From Patescibacteria group bacterium (GTDB lineage Bacteria > Patescibacteriota > Minisyncoccia > Phycocordibacterales > JBAYGS01): DNA of 40,955 nt. Under the pieces are notes generated by a model. The model saw only the letters and a list, made by a program, of their open reading frames with translations. It made no database searches and was not told the DNA's origin. Made by a program: the position numbers and the translations under genes. Shown piece by piece: positions 6,153-26,739 of the stretch. Each line of letters opens with the position of its first letter. The first letter of the stretch is position 1. The stretch is taken from positions 1 through 40,955 of the forward strand of contig JBBTSQ010000018.1 in assembly GCA_038078755.1 (NCBI GenBank), written 5' to 3'.

Positions 6153-7238
6153 CTAAATTCCCTCCTTCTTCAGCTCCTCAACCGCCTTTTTTGCTGTTTT
6201 AGACAGTTTTCGGGGTATTTCGATCACTACTCGCATCAGCAAATCCCCCCGCCTGCCACGTTCGTTTGGCACGCCACGCCCCTTTACCCGAAGCACCTCC
6301 CCGTAAGCAACACCCTCAGGAATCTTGAGTAGAATCTCACCATCAAGCGTTTGAAGTGCGTACTCAGTGCCGAGTAATGCATCACTCAACTTTACCTTCA
6401 AATCCCCTACCAAATTTACACCTTCTTTTCTAAAGAGTGGGTGTGCTTGCACATGAATTTTGATATACAAATCTCCCGTTTGGCCAGAAGCTACCGCTTC
6501 GCCTCGAGAAGTCACTCGCAAAGTCTCACCAGATTCGATGCCCGCAGGAATACTGACCGTGATCTGATCTTGTTTCTGTCGAATCCCAGCCCCGCGACAA
6601 TCGGAACATTTTTCTTTCGGCATCTTGCCTTTACCATTGCACTCTGGGCAAGTGCGAGTGGTAGCGAAAGTACCCATCAGTGACCGCACAGCTTCTTGTA
6701 CTTTTCCTTGTCCACCACAGGTCCCGCAGGTCTTCATCTCAGTTCCCGCCTTTGCTCCAGAACCGTGACAAGAGTCACAGGTGCTATTTTTATTCAAATT
6801 GATCGCTCGTTCAACACCAAACACTGAATCCTTAAATGAAATCTCAATATCAACGGAAATATCTCGCCCACGTTTTGTGCGCTCCTGTCGCCCACCAAAG
6901 AAATCTCCGAAAATATCGCCGATATCAAATTCAAATCCCTGCCCACCCTGTTGGAAGCCAGAAAAATCAAAACCGCCAAATCCCCCACCTCCAAATGGAT
7001 TACCTCCACCCGCATTGCCCCCGCCGGTCGGTCCAGCTGAGCCAAAACGGTCGTACTGAGCGCGTTTGGTGTCGTCCGAGAGTACTGAGTAGGCCTCGTT
7101 GGCCTCTTTAAACTTAGCCTCATTACCACCTTTTTTGTCAGGGTGGTGTTCGTGGGCGAGCTTTCGAAACGCCTGCTTAATCTCGTCTTTGTTGGCGCTT
7201 TTATTGACTCCGAGAATATTGTAATAGTCTTTGGACAT
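6153..7238 (-). CDS. dnaJ: Chaperone DnaJ
   Basis: J domain with HPD, G/F-rich region, four CxxCxGxG repeats. Confidence 0.98.
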   Translation of the reverse strand: MSKDYYNILGVNKSANKDEIKQAFRKLAHEHHPDKKGGNEAKFKEANEAYSVLSDDTKRAQYDRFGSAGPTGGGNAGGGNPFGGGGFGGFDFSGFQQGGQGFEFDIGDIFGDFFGGRQERTKRGRDISVDIEISFKDSVFGVERAINLNKNSTCDSCHGSGAKAGTEMKTCGTCGGQGKVQEAVRSLMGTFATTRTCPECNGKGKMPKEKCSDCRGAGIRQKQDQITVSIPAGIESGETLRVTSRGEAVASGQTGDLYIKIHVQAHPLFRKEGVNLVGDLKVKLSDALLGTEYALQTLDGEILLKIPEGVAYGEVLRVKGRGVPNERGRRGDLLMRVVIEIPRKLSKTAKKAVEELKKEGI

Positions 7239-7299: not shown

Positions 7300-9192
7300 T
7301 TATTTCTTGTCTCCTTCCTTGAATTCTGCATCTCGTACTGGACCTTCACCATCCTTCTTTTCATCAGCGCCGGTTGCACCAGCGGTTTGTGAAGCTTTAT
7401 TCATCGCCTCGCCAATCTTTGAGAGCTCGGTCGAGAGTGCTTCGGTCGCCGATTTGATTTTAGCCAGATCGCTCCCATCCTTCACCTGCTTCAAATCAGC
7501 AATTTTATCTTCAACACTTTTGCGAATGTCAGCAGATACCTTGTCGCCCGCATCTTTGAGCGCTTTTTCGCTGGTATAAATCATCTGCTCGGCAATATTT
7601 TTTGCTTCTACTGCTTCGCGTTTCTTTTGGTCATCGGCACTATTTACTTCTGCATCTTTTTGCATCTTTGCTACCTCCTCTTTTGAAAGCCCCGAACTTG
7701 CCGTAATTTTAATTGAATTTGTTTTACCACTCGCCTTATCTTTTGCGGTGACATTCAGGATACCGTTGGCATCAATATCGAAAGTCACTTCGATTTGTGG
7801 AGTACCTCGAGATGCTGGCGGGATGCCACCGAGATTGAATTGACCGAGGGATTTGTTGTCAGATGCCATCGCGCGTTCACCTTGCACCACATGGATAGTC
7901 ACTTCAGTCTGATTGTCTGCCGCAGTCGAAAACACCTGCGATTTCTGAGTCGGAATGGTCGTATTCTTTTCGATAAGTTTTGTCGCAACACCGCCCATGG
8001 TCTCGATACCAAACGAAAGCGGAATCACATCGAGCAAGAGAATATCCTTTACATCTCCCGCAAGAATGCCTCCTTGAATGGCTGCGCCGATCGCCACCAC
8101 TTCATCTGGATTTACACCCATATGGAGCTCCTTACCAAAAAATGCTTTGACCGCTGCTTGCATTGCCGGCATACGAGTTTGGCCTCCTACCATCACCACT
8201 TCACTAATATCAGCCACCTTGAAAGGCGACGCTGCCATAGCGCGCTTGGTGATAGCCATTGCTTGGTCGATAAATTCACGACAAAGGTCTTCAAGGGTCG
8301 AACGAGTCATCGTCTTCACAAGGTGCTTTGGGCCGTCGCTACCAGATGAGATGAACGGAATGTTGATCTCGGTCTGCACGGCGGTCGAGAGCTCGATCTT
8401 TGCTTTTTCTGCAGCTTCATCGAGACGTTGTACGGCCAATGGATCCTTCATTAGGTCGATGCCATTTTCTTTTTTGAAATCATCCGCGAGCCATTTGATA
8501 ATCTTCTGATCAATATCCTTTCCGCCCAAGTGTGCGTCACCGTCGGTAGACTTTACTTCTACCAAATCAGCTCCCACTTCGAGCACAGAAATATCAAATG
8601 TACCGCCTCCGAAGTCGAAGACGACAATTTTTTCATCTTTCTTTTTATTGAAGCCGTAGGCGAGGGCGGCTGCGGTCGGCTCGTTGATGATACGCATCAC
8701 TTCAAGCCCTGCGATTTTGCCGGCATCCTTGGTCGCCTGTCGTTGCGCATCGTTGAAGTATGCAGGGACGGTGATCACCGCCTGAGTAACTTTTTCTCCA
8801 AGGCGTGCTTCAGCGTCATTTTTAAGCTTGGTGAGAATCATGGCTGAAATCTCTTCCGGTCGGAGCCATTTGTCTGCCATCTTTACCTCGACTCCGCCAT
8901 TGGCTGACTTTTGCACCTCAAAAGGCACAGATGCTTTATCTTTCTGCACTGCTTCTTCTTCGAATGTGTGTCCAATGAAGCGTTTGATTTGAAAGACAGT
9001 GTTTTTTGGATTGGTCACTGCTTGTCTACGCGCAAGGAGGCCGACCAATCGGTCGCCTGTCTTTGATTGTGCCACGATCGATGGAGTGGTTCGTGCACCT
9101 TCTGCGTTTTCAAGAATTTTAGGTGAGCCGGCTTCCATCACTGCGACGGCTGAATTGGTGGTACCGAGGTCGATACCGATAATTTTTGACAT
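7300..9192 (-). CDS. dnaK: Chaperone DnaK
   Basis: [32 protein letters not shown]. Confidence 0.99.
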
Positions 9193-10209: not shown

Positions 10210-10518
10210 ATGAATATCAAAGAACTCATTCAAAAGATTACTCCTGTCGCCAAAAGCAATCCAGACGAAAACGTTCACCAACTGATTACACAGGAGTGTG
10301 GCGAGAACGCAGCGATTCTACTCCTTGCGATGTTCGAGGGAATCCGTGTCCACGGTGGTGAAGTCTGTCGTATCAACGGATACGGAGACGTGCCCATTAA
10401 TGCAAAGGGGGTTCTCAGCATCTTATGTCTCCTCGATAATTTAGGGGTCACCTCAATTGAAACATTGGGCGAGCGGACTGCTAACTACCCCTTCGTCCGT
10501 CCTCGTGACCGCCGATAA
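10210..10518 (+). CDS. Hypothetical protein
   Basis: ORF (alternative start 10174) with own promoter and downstream hairpin/T run at ~10558-10597. Confidence 0.65.
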   Translation: MNIKELIQKITPVAKSNPDENVHQLITQECGENAAILLLAMFEGIRVHGGEVCRINGYGDVPINAKGVLSILCLLDNLGVTSIETLGERTANYPFVRPRDRR

Positions 10519-10626
10519 GGAACTTGCGAGGTTCAATCTCTCGTAAAACCTTCAAACAGAACGCACGACTTTCGGGTACGGCGTTCTTTTCTTTTTCCCG
10601 TCTAAATACCAACTACTAACATCTAA

Positions 10627-11256
10627 CTACTTTTTCATTTCTCCCACCTTCACCTTTGGCGGACGGATGACGCGGTCGCCGAGCTTGTAGCCTTTGTTTA
10701 TTACGAGAACGATCTTGCCGTCCTGTGCCCTGCCAGCGGCATCATCCGCGAGTGGCACCATCTCGATCGCTTCCTGCTCGAGTGGGCTGTAGTCAGCACC
10801 AATAGGATTGAGCTCGGTCAGGCCATTCTTCTGCAAGATCCCGAGAATCTGGGACTGGATATGTTCAATACCCATGCGCCAATTCTTATCTACTTTTTCC
10901 CACGCTTCGGTATTTGCTTTCGCCATTTCAAAACTATCGAGTACCGGGAGTAAGTCCAAAATCAACTCTTCATTTGCATACTTCACGAGCTCTTTTTGTC
11001 GCTCCTGATCTCTCTTGCGAGCATTGACGAACTCCGCCTTATCACGTTGCCAGCCCGTCAGATATTCAAGCTTTTGTGCGTCACTCTTTTTGAGTTTTTC
11101 TCGCAAATCTTTAAGTTTGGCCAAAGCACCCTTTTCCATCCCCTCCTCGTCGGTGTCTACCATATCATCCGTTGACCCTGTGGTGGCCACTTCTGATTCT
11201 ACCACAGTCTCATCAGTATCAGTAGCTATTTTTTTGTTTTTAGTATCATCAGTCAT
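10627..11256 (-). CDS. grpE: Nucleotide exchange factor GrpE
   Basis: WQRDKAEFVNARKR, LLPVLDSFE, KGYKLGDRVIRPPKVKV; start at ATG 11256, 8 nt after TATACT. Confidence 0.96.
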   Translation of the reverse strand: MTDDTKNKKIATDTDETVVESEVATTGSTDDMVDTDEEGMEKGALAKLKDLREKLKKSDAQKLEYLTGWQRDKAEFVNARKRDQERQKELVKYANEELILDLLPVLDSFEMAKANTEAWEKVDKNWRMGIEHIQSQILGILQKNGLTELNPIGADYSPLEQEAIEMVPLADDAAGRAQDGKIVLVINKGYKLGDRVIRPPKVKVGEMKK

Positions 11257-11341
11257 AGGGCTATAGTATATCGATTTTTTAGACGAAAGCAAATTTATCA
11301 ATAACTACACACGTTCTAGATACGTAATTCGATCAAAATCG

Positions 11342-11363
11342 CTATCTACGCTATAGCTGAGAT
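11342..11363. repeat. Left 22-bp inverted repeat flanking the Cas2/PaaX-like gene
   Basis: ctatctacgctatagctgagat is the exact reverse complement of 11786-11807. Confidence 0.92.
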
Positions 11364-11391
11364 AGTGAAAGTATATTAATATATAGTCAAT

Positions 11392-11772
11392 ATGAATCGA
11401 AAAAGAAGAATACATCGCTACAAGGGCATAGCCGTGAACTTACTCGGCATACCTGTAGACCTTTCTAGAGACAACAAAGAATGTCCCCCGAACAACATCC
11501 GATCCAGGTATCTCCGATCATTTATACCCATTAATACAAAAGGTTTACCTAAGAACCTACTGGTACTATATGATATTCCGGAGGACAAAAAGAAGGAGCG
11601 GGATTGGTTTCGTCGCCAACTACGAAGCTTTGACTTTGATATGATTCAAAGAAGTGTGTGGGTGGGACCATCGCCTTTGCCAAAGGACTTTCTGGCGTAT
11701 GTGAAGACAATAGGGCTACAAAATGAGTTTAAGATTTTTAAGCTAGCTCGCCCATACAAAAAAATAGTCTAA
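11392..11772 (+). CDS. PaaX-central-domain/Cas2-like ferredoxin-fold protein
   Basis: LVLYDIPEDKKKERDWFRRQL..F..IQRSVWVGP pattern; no recognisable wHTH; no cas1 or array nearby. Confidence 0.8.
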   Translation: MNRKRRIHRYKGIAVNLLGIPVDLSRDNKECPPNNIRSRYLRSFIPINTKGLPKNLLVLYDIPEDKKKERDWFRRQLRSFDFDMIQRSVWVGPSPLPKDFLAYVKTIGLQNEFKIFKLARPYKKIV

Positions 11773-11785
11773 GGTGTCTACACTC

Positions 11786-11807
11786 ATCTCAGCTATAGCG
11801 TAGATAG
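11786..11807. repeat. Right 22-bp inverted repeat flanking the Cas2/PaaX-like gene
   Basis: atctcagctatagcgtagatag. Confidence 0.92.
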
Positions 11808-11931
11808 TACAATATATTTATATAAAATAAATAGTACAACCCGGGAATGATCTGTGGGATTACGGATACTGATTGACAGAGTCACAAAACTGACTATTCT
11901 GGATAGAGAACTGTTTTTTGAAAGGAAACAT

Positions 11932-12858
11932 ATGACTACAATCCCAGCTATTCCTGACGGTCTCTTGCCTATCTCAAAAAGTCGGGCGATTCGCCTACTC
12001 CTTCTTGGTCTGAGAGACCACGATGACAGAGTCACCAAGTCATTACTCAGACTATCTGAAAATATTCAATTGCCTGATGACGTCTCTCGAATGTGGGGAG
12101 CGTGCCGATTTTGGCACGGGCAGAAGAATATACATGTCGGTGAGTCTGCTACCGTGCTTCGCTTTTTGTGGTGGTTCAACCAAGTCCAAAAAGCCGGTAA
12201 GAATTTTGTCAGAAAGAAGACTCTTCTTGATAGAGAGATCACCCTCGATCCTGAAATGCTGTCGTGGACAATCTTTGACCTTTTGGACAAATCGAAAGTT
12301 CCCGAAGGCACCAGTCAGCTTGCGAGCGCGGCGAGCCTCTGTACACCATGGCAGTATGTACGTGTGACAACCAAGTGCCCACATCAATTACAGATTACCT
12401 ACCAGGTGCTGGATGAGTGGAATGTGTATTTGAAAACGGGAAAACTTCCCGAAGCAGGGATTGATCCTACTATCGAAGCTCAAGCGAAGGCCTTTATACG
12501 TGTGAATACGGGTGGCGAATGGCAATTTGAAATGGCTCAACAAGAAGACTTCCCGTTTGCGTATATCATGCTCGGGGAGTGGGCTCTGACCGAAGCGAAA
12601 AAACAATGGCCTAGTCTCGCTAATCACGAAAGCAATCGATTCACTGAGGTGGAGCAAGCAAAAAATGAGTGGCTCACTATGAATACCGTGAGTAGCCGTG
12701 ACCACCGAGTCATCCAAGCTGTCGCTCTGTTCGCGCTCCTCAAAGGGTATAAGCCGAAAAAAATTAAGGCTGGAATAAAATATCCAGAGGCTGTGGCCAA
12801 GAGTTGGCCAGCATTTTACCACTTTCTCGATTGGGCGTATGAAAATAGCCGAAAGTAG
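11932..12858 (+). CDS. Divergent, shortened EPSP synthase (AroA)-like enolpyruvyl transferase
   Basis: Motifs in AroA order: SKSRAIR, VGESATVLRF, TSQLASA, HESNR, DHRV, VAKSWPAF; GAAAGG RBS before ATG 11932; TTGACA-16-TATTCT upstream. Confidence 0.72.
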   Translation: MTTIPAIPDGLLPISKSRAIRLLLLGLRDHDDRVTKSLLRLSENIQLPDDVSRMWGACRFWHGQKNIHVGESATVLRFLWWFNQVQKAGKNFVRKKTLLDREITLDPEMLSWTIFDLLDKSKVPEGTSQLASAASLCTPWQYVRVTTKCPHQLQITYQVLDEWNVYLKTGKLPEAGIDPTIEAQAKAFIRVNTGGEWQFEMAQQEDFPFAYIMLGEWALTEAKKQWPSLANHESNRFTEVEQAKNEWLTMNTVSSRDHRVIQAVALFALLKGYKPKKIKAGIKYPEAVAKSWPAFYHFLDWAYENSRK

Positions 12859-26659: not shown

Positions 26660-26699
26660 CTGGCTCACTGAAAAAATAAATACATCACCTGTGTCTACA

Positions 26700-26739
26700 C
26701 ATACATTGATTATACGCACGTGCGTATAATCAATGTATG
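26700..26739. repeat. 40-bp perfect palindrome
   Basis: catacattgattatacgcac|gtgcgtataatcaatgtatg. Confidence 0.95.

Follow-up and report, generated by a model that had tools for sequence, protein, structure and literature searches.

A small Cas2-fold protein of Patescibacteria is bracketed by palindromes and predicted to bind them

In a 40,955-nucleotide (nt) stretch of the genome of a Patescibacteria group bacterium, an ultra-small groundwater organism (NCBI GenBank assembly GCA_038078755.1, contig JBBTSQ010000018.1, positions 1 to 40,955 of the forward strand; the whole stretch is referred to here as the window), a gene for a Cas2-like protein of 126 amino acids (aa) lies between two copies of one palindromic motif. 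This bracket is conserved among homologs, the upstream copy holds a fixed position relative to the promoter and start codon, and residues of the protein co-vary with bases of the palindrome. Taken together, these observations make it probable, in our judgement, that the protein binds DNA as a dimer and in a sequence-specific manner by means of its Cas2 fold; it is predicted to repress its own promoter via the upstream palindrome.

Although databases label the protein Cas2 or PaaX, it is part of no CRISPR system and of no paa operon. Patescibacteria genomes contain few recognised regulators. If our reading is correct, a Cas2-fold protein of about 120 aa would read a palindrome of 20-30 base pairs (bp) by a simple code, in which Glu stands for a TATA centre and His or Ser for a CATG centre. 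The Cas2 fold would thereby serve a novel purpose, the protein would be a programmable DNA binder of very small size, and Patescibacteria would have a widespread, unannotated regulatory layer. Furthermore, isolated ("solo") copies of the site are located at gene ends and are present, together with the gene, in one of two congeners, observations that allow a direct test of how intergenic palindromes arise and spread in minimal genomes.

Two copies of a palindromic site bracket the gene

The features of the locus are the following.

11342 to 11365, no strand assigned: upstream palindrome of 24 nt, centred 38 nt before the ATG; the left repeat arm is 11342-11363
11372 to 11387, plus strand: two candidate -10 hexamers, TATATT (11372-11377) and TATAGT (11382-11387), either of which may serve
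11392 to 11772, plus strand: gene for the 126-aa protein, the single open reading frame (ORF) between the repeat arms
11491 to 11517, plus strand: codons 34-42, N-terminal helix, with residues that co-vary with half-site bases 8-9
11569 to 11583, plus strand: codons 60-64, YDIPE, the Cas2 signature with the conserved Asp61; Glu64 predicts a TATA centre
11774 to 11783, plus strand: 10-mer GTGTCTACAC, half-site-like, containing TCTAC, directly before the downstream palindrome
11784 to 11807, no strand assigned: downstream palindrome, centred 23 nt past the stop codon; the right repeat arm is 11786-11807

A preliminary description of this DNA had reported exact 22-bp inverted repeats enclosing one 126-aa gene, and this holds. 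The arms (11342-11363 and 11786-11807) are 22 nt long, 100% complementary and 422 nt apart; at up to three mismatches the 22-mer is found in the window at the two arm positions only, and none of 100 dinucleotide-preserving shuffles gave a match. Two finer details were also borne out, namely a 4-bp inward extension with a 1-nt indel (AGTG versus G+AGTG) and the quasi-palindromic nature of each arm around CTATAG. More specifically, each arm extended to 24 nt is a near-palindrome with 4 of the 24 positions mismatched and the form AT-N-T-NN-GC-YATR-GC-NN-A-N-AT. Since either copy reads almost identically on both strands, the fact that the two are inverted relative to each other is little informative and carries about one bit; the signal is two copies of one palindromic motif.

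The 10-mer GTGTCTACAC, previously described as abutting both the right repeat and a 40-bp palindrome, is found exactly twice in the window, at 11774 and at 26691 (shuffle mean 0.03), and can pair with the right arm of the downstream palindrome. It stands just outside three different palindromes: the 40-nt orphan and the downstream sites of two genes, that for the 126-aa protein and a paralog on contig C32 (about position 6190).

No Shine-Dalgarno sequence precedes the ATG, and a consensus promoter scan called neither of the two -10 hexamers. Folded as RNA, the upstream palindrome is good (-12.7 kcal/mol, z -4.0) and the downstream palindrome weak (-7.4 kcal/mol, z -0.6), and Rfam gave no match in the region 10500-12500 at E-values up to 1. 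The earlier statement that cas1, a CRISPR array, a transposase and a target-site duplication are all missing agrees with our searches: Cas1 had no match in the genome (100% estimated completeness), a simple script scan of the genome found no CRISPR-like array, no direct repeat was seen adjoining the arms, and the protein matched no HUH/Y1 (IS200-like) or other transposase domain in Pfam or NCBIfam.

The bracket and its promoter geometry are conserved in homologs

At E-values up to 0.001, 1073 of 1109 candidate clusters match the protein. They are mostly 112-136 aa long and 55-66% identical, carry the labels Cas2, PaaX or hypothetical, and are referred to here as the short family, with 321 loci in a species-level genome collection and at least 527 in metagenome contigs. 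We analysed a genome set, consisting of the best 80 of the 321 loci plus the window, with both flanks available in 76 (75 homologs and the window), and a metagenome set of 80 loci, 72 of which had both flanks.

The preliminary description had suggested asking whether homologs are flanked by cognate repeats of their own. A palindrome of the same family is present on both sides at 64 of the 75 homolog loci in the genome set (65 of 76 including the window), while 10 have the upstream palindrome only and 1 has none; in the metagenome set, 65 of 72 loci carry the palindrome on both sides. Perfect sites flank the gene on both sides in the genome of one relative (G052).

The position of the upstream copy is tightly constrained: in 57 of 67 loci, its centre precedes the ATG by 34-39 nt. 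Downstream centres range from 19 nt inside the ORF to 64 nt past the stop codon, and 61 of the 67 lie 9-64 nt past it. A TATAAT-like hexamer follows the upstream palindrome in 59 of 67 loci, and in 43 of these it is located 6-7 nt before the ATG; short-family mRNAs are therefore probably leaderless, which would place the palindrome in the -35 region.

Within a locus, the upstream and downstream copies have the same arm variant, and the variant differs between loci and between paralogs. Where the copies are asymmetric, they are in direct orientation at 17 loci and inverted at 17, with 33 tied, and therefore no terminal-inverted-repeat rule applies.

Protein residues co-vary with bases of the flanking sites

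In an alignment of 67 proteins, we compared every column with the bases found in the flanking sites, using permutations as the null. The residue after YDIP tracks the centre of the palindrome without exception: Glu or Asp occurs with TATA in 31/31 loci, and His, Ser, Tyr, Gln or Lys with CATG in 31/31 (62/62 together), which corresponds to a mutual information of 1.00 bit (permutation 95% level, 0.38). The metagenome set replicated this association, with Glu accompanying TATA at 76 of 87 sites (2 had CATG and 9 mixed centres) and His, Ser, Tyr or Phe accompanying CATG at 53 of 55. Within the 60 metagenome loci that are less than 90% identical to any protein of the first set, the corresponding counts were 60/67 for Glu with TATA and 43/44 for CATG.

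Co-variation is also found in the N-terminal helix. Residue 40 follows half-site position 9, with Tyr accompanying T in 57/57 loci and Phe, Gln or His accompanying A in 8/8, and residues 35, 38, 39 and 42 track half-site position 8 (mutual information 1.04-1.23; null 95% level, 0.77). One residue per subunit that tracks a two-fold symmetric change from TATA to CATG fits a homodimer sitting on the dyad of duplex DNA.

The protein has a Cas2-like domain and a distinct N-terminus

The YDIP...QxSV motif had been assigned to the Cas2/VapD/PaaX fold, and Pfam, NCBIfam and Foldseek agree with this assignment, with weak E-values for the fold matches. The protein scores 51.5 bits against PF20803 PaaX_M (cut-off 24; residues 57-118), 28.7 bits against PF09827 Cas2 (cut-off 23.8) and 26.2 bits against the Cas2 model TIGR01573 (cut-off 24.5), and fails the PaaX equivalog TIGR02277 (14.6 bits versus a cut-off of 264.55). 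At E-values up to 10, a Pfam search returned PaaX_M and Cas2 alone, with neither a winged helix nor the PaaX C-terminal domain. Only weak Cas2 models were reported by PADLOC, and a sequence search of the Protein Data Bank (PDB) gave marginal Cas2 matches only (best 3exc, E 0.036).

The AlphaFold2 model (predicted local distance difference test 74.6) comprises a beta-hairpin (residues 8-15), a helix (34-41) and a Cas2-like beta-alpha-beta-beta-alpha-beta domain (54-122). Thus, an N-terminal part of about 55 aa precedes the Cas2-like domain, and the protein ends 4 residues past it. In a Foldseek search of the PDB, the top matches were Cas2, VapD and PaaX chains, with 5xvo, 5zyf and 5g4d first and 8a39 among them, at weak E-values of 0.02-0.15. 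A homodimer prediction scored 0.41 against a mark of 0.42. Literature searches on PaaX/Cas2-like proteins, Patescibacteria or the Candidate Phyla Radiation, and palindromes returned nothing on the family, as judged by titles and the starts of abstracts.

PaaX binds an operator. The PaaX of Escherichia coli W, a phenylacetyl-CoA-responsive repressor (structure 8a39), has the central Cas2-like domain in common with the 126-aa protein, whose best Pfam match is PaaX_M, and both would be palindrome-associated regulators, the role of the 126-aa protein being predicted. In contrast to PaaX, the protein lacks the N-terminal winged helix and the PaaX C-terminal domain (126 aa versus 305 residues in the 8a39 chain), no paa operon lies near its gene, and recognition of the site's centre appears to reside in the Cas2-like domain itself.

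With CRISPR Cas2 and VapD, the protein has in common the YDI...QxSV signature with its conserved Asp, Cas2 model scores over the cut-off and the top fold matches. It differs from CRISPR Cas2 in its setting, since neither cas1 nor an array was found in the genome and its gene is flanked by palindromes instead of cas genes, with grpE and a 334-aa ORF as neighbours. The conserved extra N-terminal part of about 55 aa and the lack of a conserved antitoxin-like partner across short-family loci distinguish it from both Cas2 and VapD.

Longer winged-helix paralogs are bracketed in the same manner

Three paralogs encoded in the genome are longer (about 190-200 aa) and combine a winged helix with a Cas2-like domain. 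Each is bracketed by its own palindrome of 34-40 nt, with the -10 box inside the upstream copy. We considered 29 long-paralog loci from relatives, of which 2 at contig ends were dropped, and used 511 permuted upstream/downstream pairs as control. In 20 of the 27 loci, a private palindrome pair (19-42 nt, mostly 30-42) ranked at or above the 99th percentile, and the median pair score was 22 versus 8 in the controls. Many long-paralog sites combine the half-site A-T/A-T-T-A/T-CGC with a centre of 4 nt and thus have the same geometry as the short-family site, and one long paralog has a TATA-centred site.

Long and short forms in Patescibacteria have the same cassette order: palindrome, -10 box, probably leaderless gene, palindrome. 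The long paralogs differ in their length (146-300 aa, mostly 170-235), in their winged helix and in palindromes of 30-42 nt that are private to the locus, while the short form has lost the winged helix and has a conserved YKG...GLP N-terminus in its place. This comparison indicates that the short protein is a truncated member, devoid of the winged helix, of a Patescibacteria-wide superfamily of self-bracketed PaaX-like genes.

The gene had been put forward as a candidate source of the long orphan palindromes of the window, a proposal that our results do not support for the 40-nt one. The perfect 40-nt palindrome at 26700-26739, located between convergent genes, belongs to a 4-copy family (also at C1:9651, C28:63797 and C33:19488) and resembles the sites of the long winged-helix paralogs, with the outer CATACA..TGATT in common, and not the class of the short gene. 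No gene of its own was found for this family in the assembly.

Solo sites are dispersed at gene ends

The dispersal of the repeats, raised as a check in the preliminary description, is evident. At up to two mismatches, the motif occurs at 9 sites in this genome, 2 flanking the gene and 7 solo, whereas the reversed pattern, used as control, matched at 0. In five further genomes that carry the gene (0.5-0.7 Mb), there are 8-21 sites each (reversed control, 0-2), and solo copies number 5-13 per genome. Exact sites were found in 8 of 121 sampled genomes of the order, comprising 3/3 genomes with the full-length gene (15, 3 and 1 sites) and 5/118 in which the gene was not found (6, 2, 1, 1 and 1).

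At 46 solo sites examined with crude ORF calls, the neighbouring genes are convergent in 10 cases, tandem in 18 and divergent in 1; another 16 sites fell "inside" over-extended ORFs and 1 was undetermined. Many solo sites begin 4-15 nt past a stop codon and occupy the entire spacer, and some at 3' ends are flanked by A and T runs. Many sit at the apex of a perfect palindrome that is longer and whose outer arms are private to the site; a 36-nt version is common to two loci of one genome. The UvrD-KsgA and UvrC-SpoU junctions carry a solo site in different genomes, and many sites separate core genes, with RpoC-DnaG and PurL-PurQ as examples. In other genomes, solo sites combine the half-site variants freely.

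An apparently recurrent 497-aa gene beside solo sites proved to be an artefact of ORFs cut by 1.5-kb windows. Three solo sites (L141, L146 and L162, in genomes G359, G358 and G362) lie within or beside ORFs that encode a reverse-transcriptase domain (RVT_1), possibly of group II intron or retron type. At L166 (G361 C15:1939-1983), two short-family sites of different arm types stand in tandem, 5 nt apart, between two large genes. Solo sites L153, L164, L166 and L171 (more loosely, L149) follow large genes without a Pfam match, and the large genes before L153, L164, L166 and L171 share a C-terminal zinc-ribbon-like peptide, ..YCEKCYQQEVY.

Gain, loss and exchange of the cassette

The neighbouring genes of the locus are the following.

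7300 to 9192, minus strand: dnaK
10627 to 11301, minus strand: grpE-like gene, the upstream neighbour of the gene for the 126-aa protein
next after the gene for the 126-aa protein: 334-aa ORF, function unassigned

In a genome of the same genus, G001, the grpE-to-ORF junction lacks the gene and spans about 141 nt, versus about 630-670 nt here, depending on the grpE start. This empty locus has no palindrome of the short-family type, and the intergenic DNA of the two genomes is too diverged to set exact insertion borders. Short-family sites were also absent from G001 at 5/5 examined positions syntenic to solo sites of this genome. At the rpsT 3' end, the outer stem AAAAAAC/GTTTTTT is common to both congeners and the apex differs, being a short-family palindrome in this genome. 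In G001, the region syntenic to the solo site at C17:11533 (C27, about 1150-1298) contains a different near-palindrome, of the TATATACGAC type, and palindrome classes thus replace one another at one position.

The contexts of the cassette vary across the family, with GatC downstream at 10 loci, rpsG upstream at 8, SMC upstream at 5 and GrpE upstream, as here, at one locus; the cassette is also found between rpsG and fusA. Within lineages, synteny is conserved at several positions. In 12 of 13 pairs of paralogs from the same assembly, aa identity is 58-78%. The remaining, recent pair (L102 and L109, on two contigs of one Nomurabacteria metagenome-assembled genome (MAG), in different contexts) is 96% identical in aa; at the DNA level, an identity of 94% extends from near codon 6 as far as the outer edge of the downstream palindrome, and the promoter, first codons and upstream palindrome differ, a pattern that suggests gene conversion or partial cassette exchange. 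A 432-nt contig of run X10 has 1 difference from the 3' 300 nt of the gene plus the downstream palindrome (11505-11805), and its other 131 nt are unlike the window; the related gene on this contig would be mosaic in the same way as L102 and L109.

Site-gene-site-gene-site chains occur, and contigs of four runs (X4, X6, X10 and X13) covering 10900-12300 tended to end at palindromes. As a whole, the cassette and its sites come and go on an evolutionary time scale.

Discussion

We propose that the two "inverted repeats" would be two copies of a palindromic recognition site, with the half-site AT-N-T-(AC/CA)-GC-Y-A and the dyad in YATR. The Cas2-like domains would be positioned on the dyad, where Glu64, beside YDIP, would read the central TATA, and recognition of bases 8-9 in each half-site would fall to the N-terminal helix (residues 34-42). 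The promoter of the gene is probably leaderless, and the upstream site would overlie its -35 region, so that binding there would repress the gene. The downstream site may act as a second operator, looping with the first or blocking transcription at the cassette border, and the solo sites may be additional targets of the same protein.

As in an autoregulated repressor with a palindromic operator, the site holds a fixed position over the gene's own promoter, and protein residues co-vary with its bases. In the preliminary description, the locus was interpreted as a minimal mobile or self-regulating unit. Self-regulation fits the upstream copy over the promoter and the co-variation. Mobility fares less well, given the lack of a terminal-repeat rule and of a target duplication, the old paralogs and the several positions syntenic within lineages. 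Likewise, the cassette does not behave as an insertion sequence or miniature inverted-repeat transposable element, as its ends are not consistently inverted, no duplication adjoins the arms and 12 of the 13 paralog pairs are only 58-78% identical. Past relocation of the cassette and spread of the solo sites are real possibilities; nothing shows catalysis by the 126-aa protein.

Several observations weigh against a simple autoregulated repressor. The downstream palindrome is retained whatever the orientation of the next gene, and a second operator after the stop codon is unusual for a repressor. No recognised DNA-binding domain is among the Pfam matches of the protein. On a quick protein tree built without the co-varying columns, the centre type changes at least 9 times, a count that rests on unsupported branches of a short-protein tree; the supported branches hold only 3 independent centre switches (3/3 concordant, sign test p 0.25). 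Pairing between the arms at positions 11-15, counted from the centre, is found in 54-75% of the sites that flank the gene and in 39-63% of solo sites, with a conservation of only 0.14-0.72 bits, and such outer-arm pairing without sequence conservation hints that hairpin formation or a copying mechanism also matters. The placement of the solo sites looks like that of a 3'-end element and not like a set of promoters. Furthermore, sites are present where the gene was not found (6 in G432, 2 in G002 and 1 in G006), although failure to find the gene in a MAG says little about its true absence, given the tendency of contigs to end at palindromes. The faithful second site, the preference of solo sites for gene ends and hairpin tips, and the genomes with sites and no detected gene are thus left unexplained by repression of the gene's own promoter, and two groups of alternatives, one resembling REP/RAYT systems and one invoking a recombinase, stay alive for this reason.

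Within the first group, the protein and palindrome might form a self-propagating pair: after entry of the cassette, copies of the site would be written, in a protein-dependent manner, into the tips of terminator hairpins genome-wide, as a Cas2-based analogue of REP/RAYT. We regard this as unlikely, if not negligibly so. If true, it would point to a possible evolutionary link between palindrome-binding regulators and Cas2, which handles DNA at palindromic CRISPR repeats.

Alternatively, the palindromes would themselves be small mobile or copied elements, which the Cas2-fold protein, with its retained YDIP Asp, nicks or otherwise mobilises in trans. We consider this, too, unlikely. REP/RAYT (TnpA-REP) systems resemble the short family in several respects: one small gene, present once, has its cognate palindromes on either side, more copies are scattered through extragenic DNA at the 3' ends of genes, and every subfamily uses a palindrome of its own. 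Here, solo copies outnumber flanking ones (7 versus 2, with comparable dispersal in the five other gene-bearing genomes), the congener G001 lacks the gene together with the sites at all five syntenic positions and has the rpsT apex replaced, the cassette occurs in many unrelated contexts, and the 3'-end solo sites lie inside longer perfect palindromes with private outer arms, including the 36-nt version at two loci. The fold is, however, unrelated, with no HUH/Y1 or other transposase domain, near-identical copies are limited to one pair, and 5-13 solo copies per genome are few for a REP family. The upstream copy is locked to a promoter, and the symmetric co-variation between a residue and the central base pairs points to a dimer on duplex DNA, not to a hairpin loop. 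The recurring UvrD-KsgA and UvrC-SpoU junctions suggest a maintained function. In addition, dozens of other hairpin families in this genome have no linked gene, and palindrome turnover may be general.

It appears improbable to us that the locus is a recombination cassette, with a host tyrosine recombinase acting on the palindromes as its core sites, in the manner of dif modules or integron cassettes, and with the protein as cargo. A circular promoter-gene-site unit would integrate at a solo site and leave the gene between two hybrid sites. The site does resemble a recombinase core, with arms of about 11 nt around a short centre, and the genome encodes a single tyrosine recombinase. Two perfect parental forms exist elsewhere in the genome and two hybrid forms flank the gene, the identity tract of the 96% paralog pair ends at the outer edge of the downstream palindrome, and there are the site-gene-site-gene-site chains. 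We dropped the flanking hybrids (AC|CA' and CA|AC') as a special recombination signal, since half-site variants mix freely at solo sites elsewhere. The empty G001 locus has no short-family palindrome, many sites lie between core genes (RpoC-DnaG, PurL-PurQ), where recombination would be harmful, and a residue of the cargo that predicts the centre of the site is left unexplained. No excision or inversion joint was present in the contigs of the four runs, which cannot show rare forms.

Least likely of all is a role at the RNA level, with the palindromes as transcript hairpins (terminators, processing or stability elements) that a Cas2/VapD-like protein binds or cuts: relatives include endoribonucleases, as judged from PDB entry titles, the upstream copy folds well, outer arms co-vary and some 3'-end solo sites have A and T runs, but the upstream copy precedes the -10 box and is hence no part of the gene's mRNA, folding of the downstream copy is weak here, tandem A.G/C.U mismatches occupy positions 5-6 in many sites, the symmetric change from TATA to CATG would fall in the loop, and Rfam has no match.

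Other palindromes of the genome

The 0.79-Mb genome contains 689 palindromes with arms of at least 10 nt, many of them in repeated families of 31, 20, 11 and fewer copies. These families are mostly terminator-like hairpins flanked by A/T runs, with no linked gene. Near a contig end (C24:37302-37380), a short-family site of 22 nt with a CATG centre is located 24 nt from a 34-nt palindrome of the long family.

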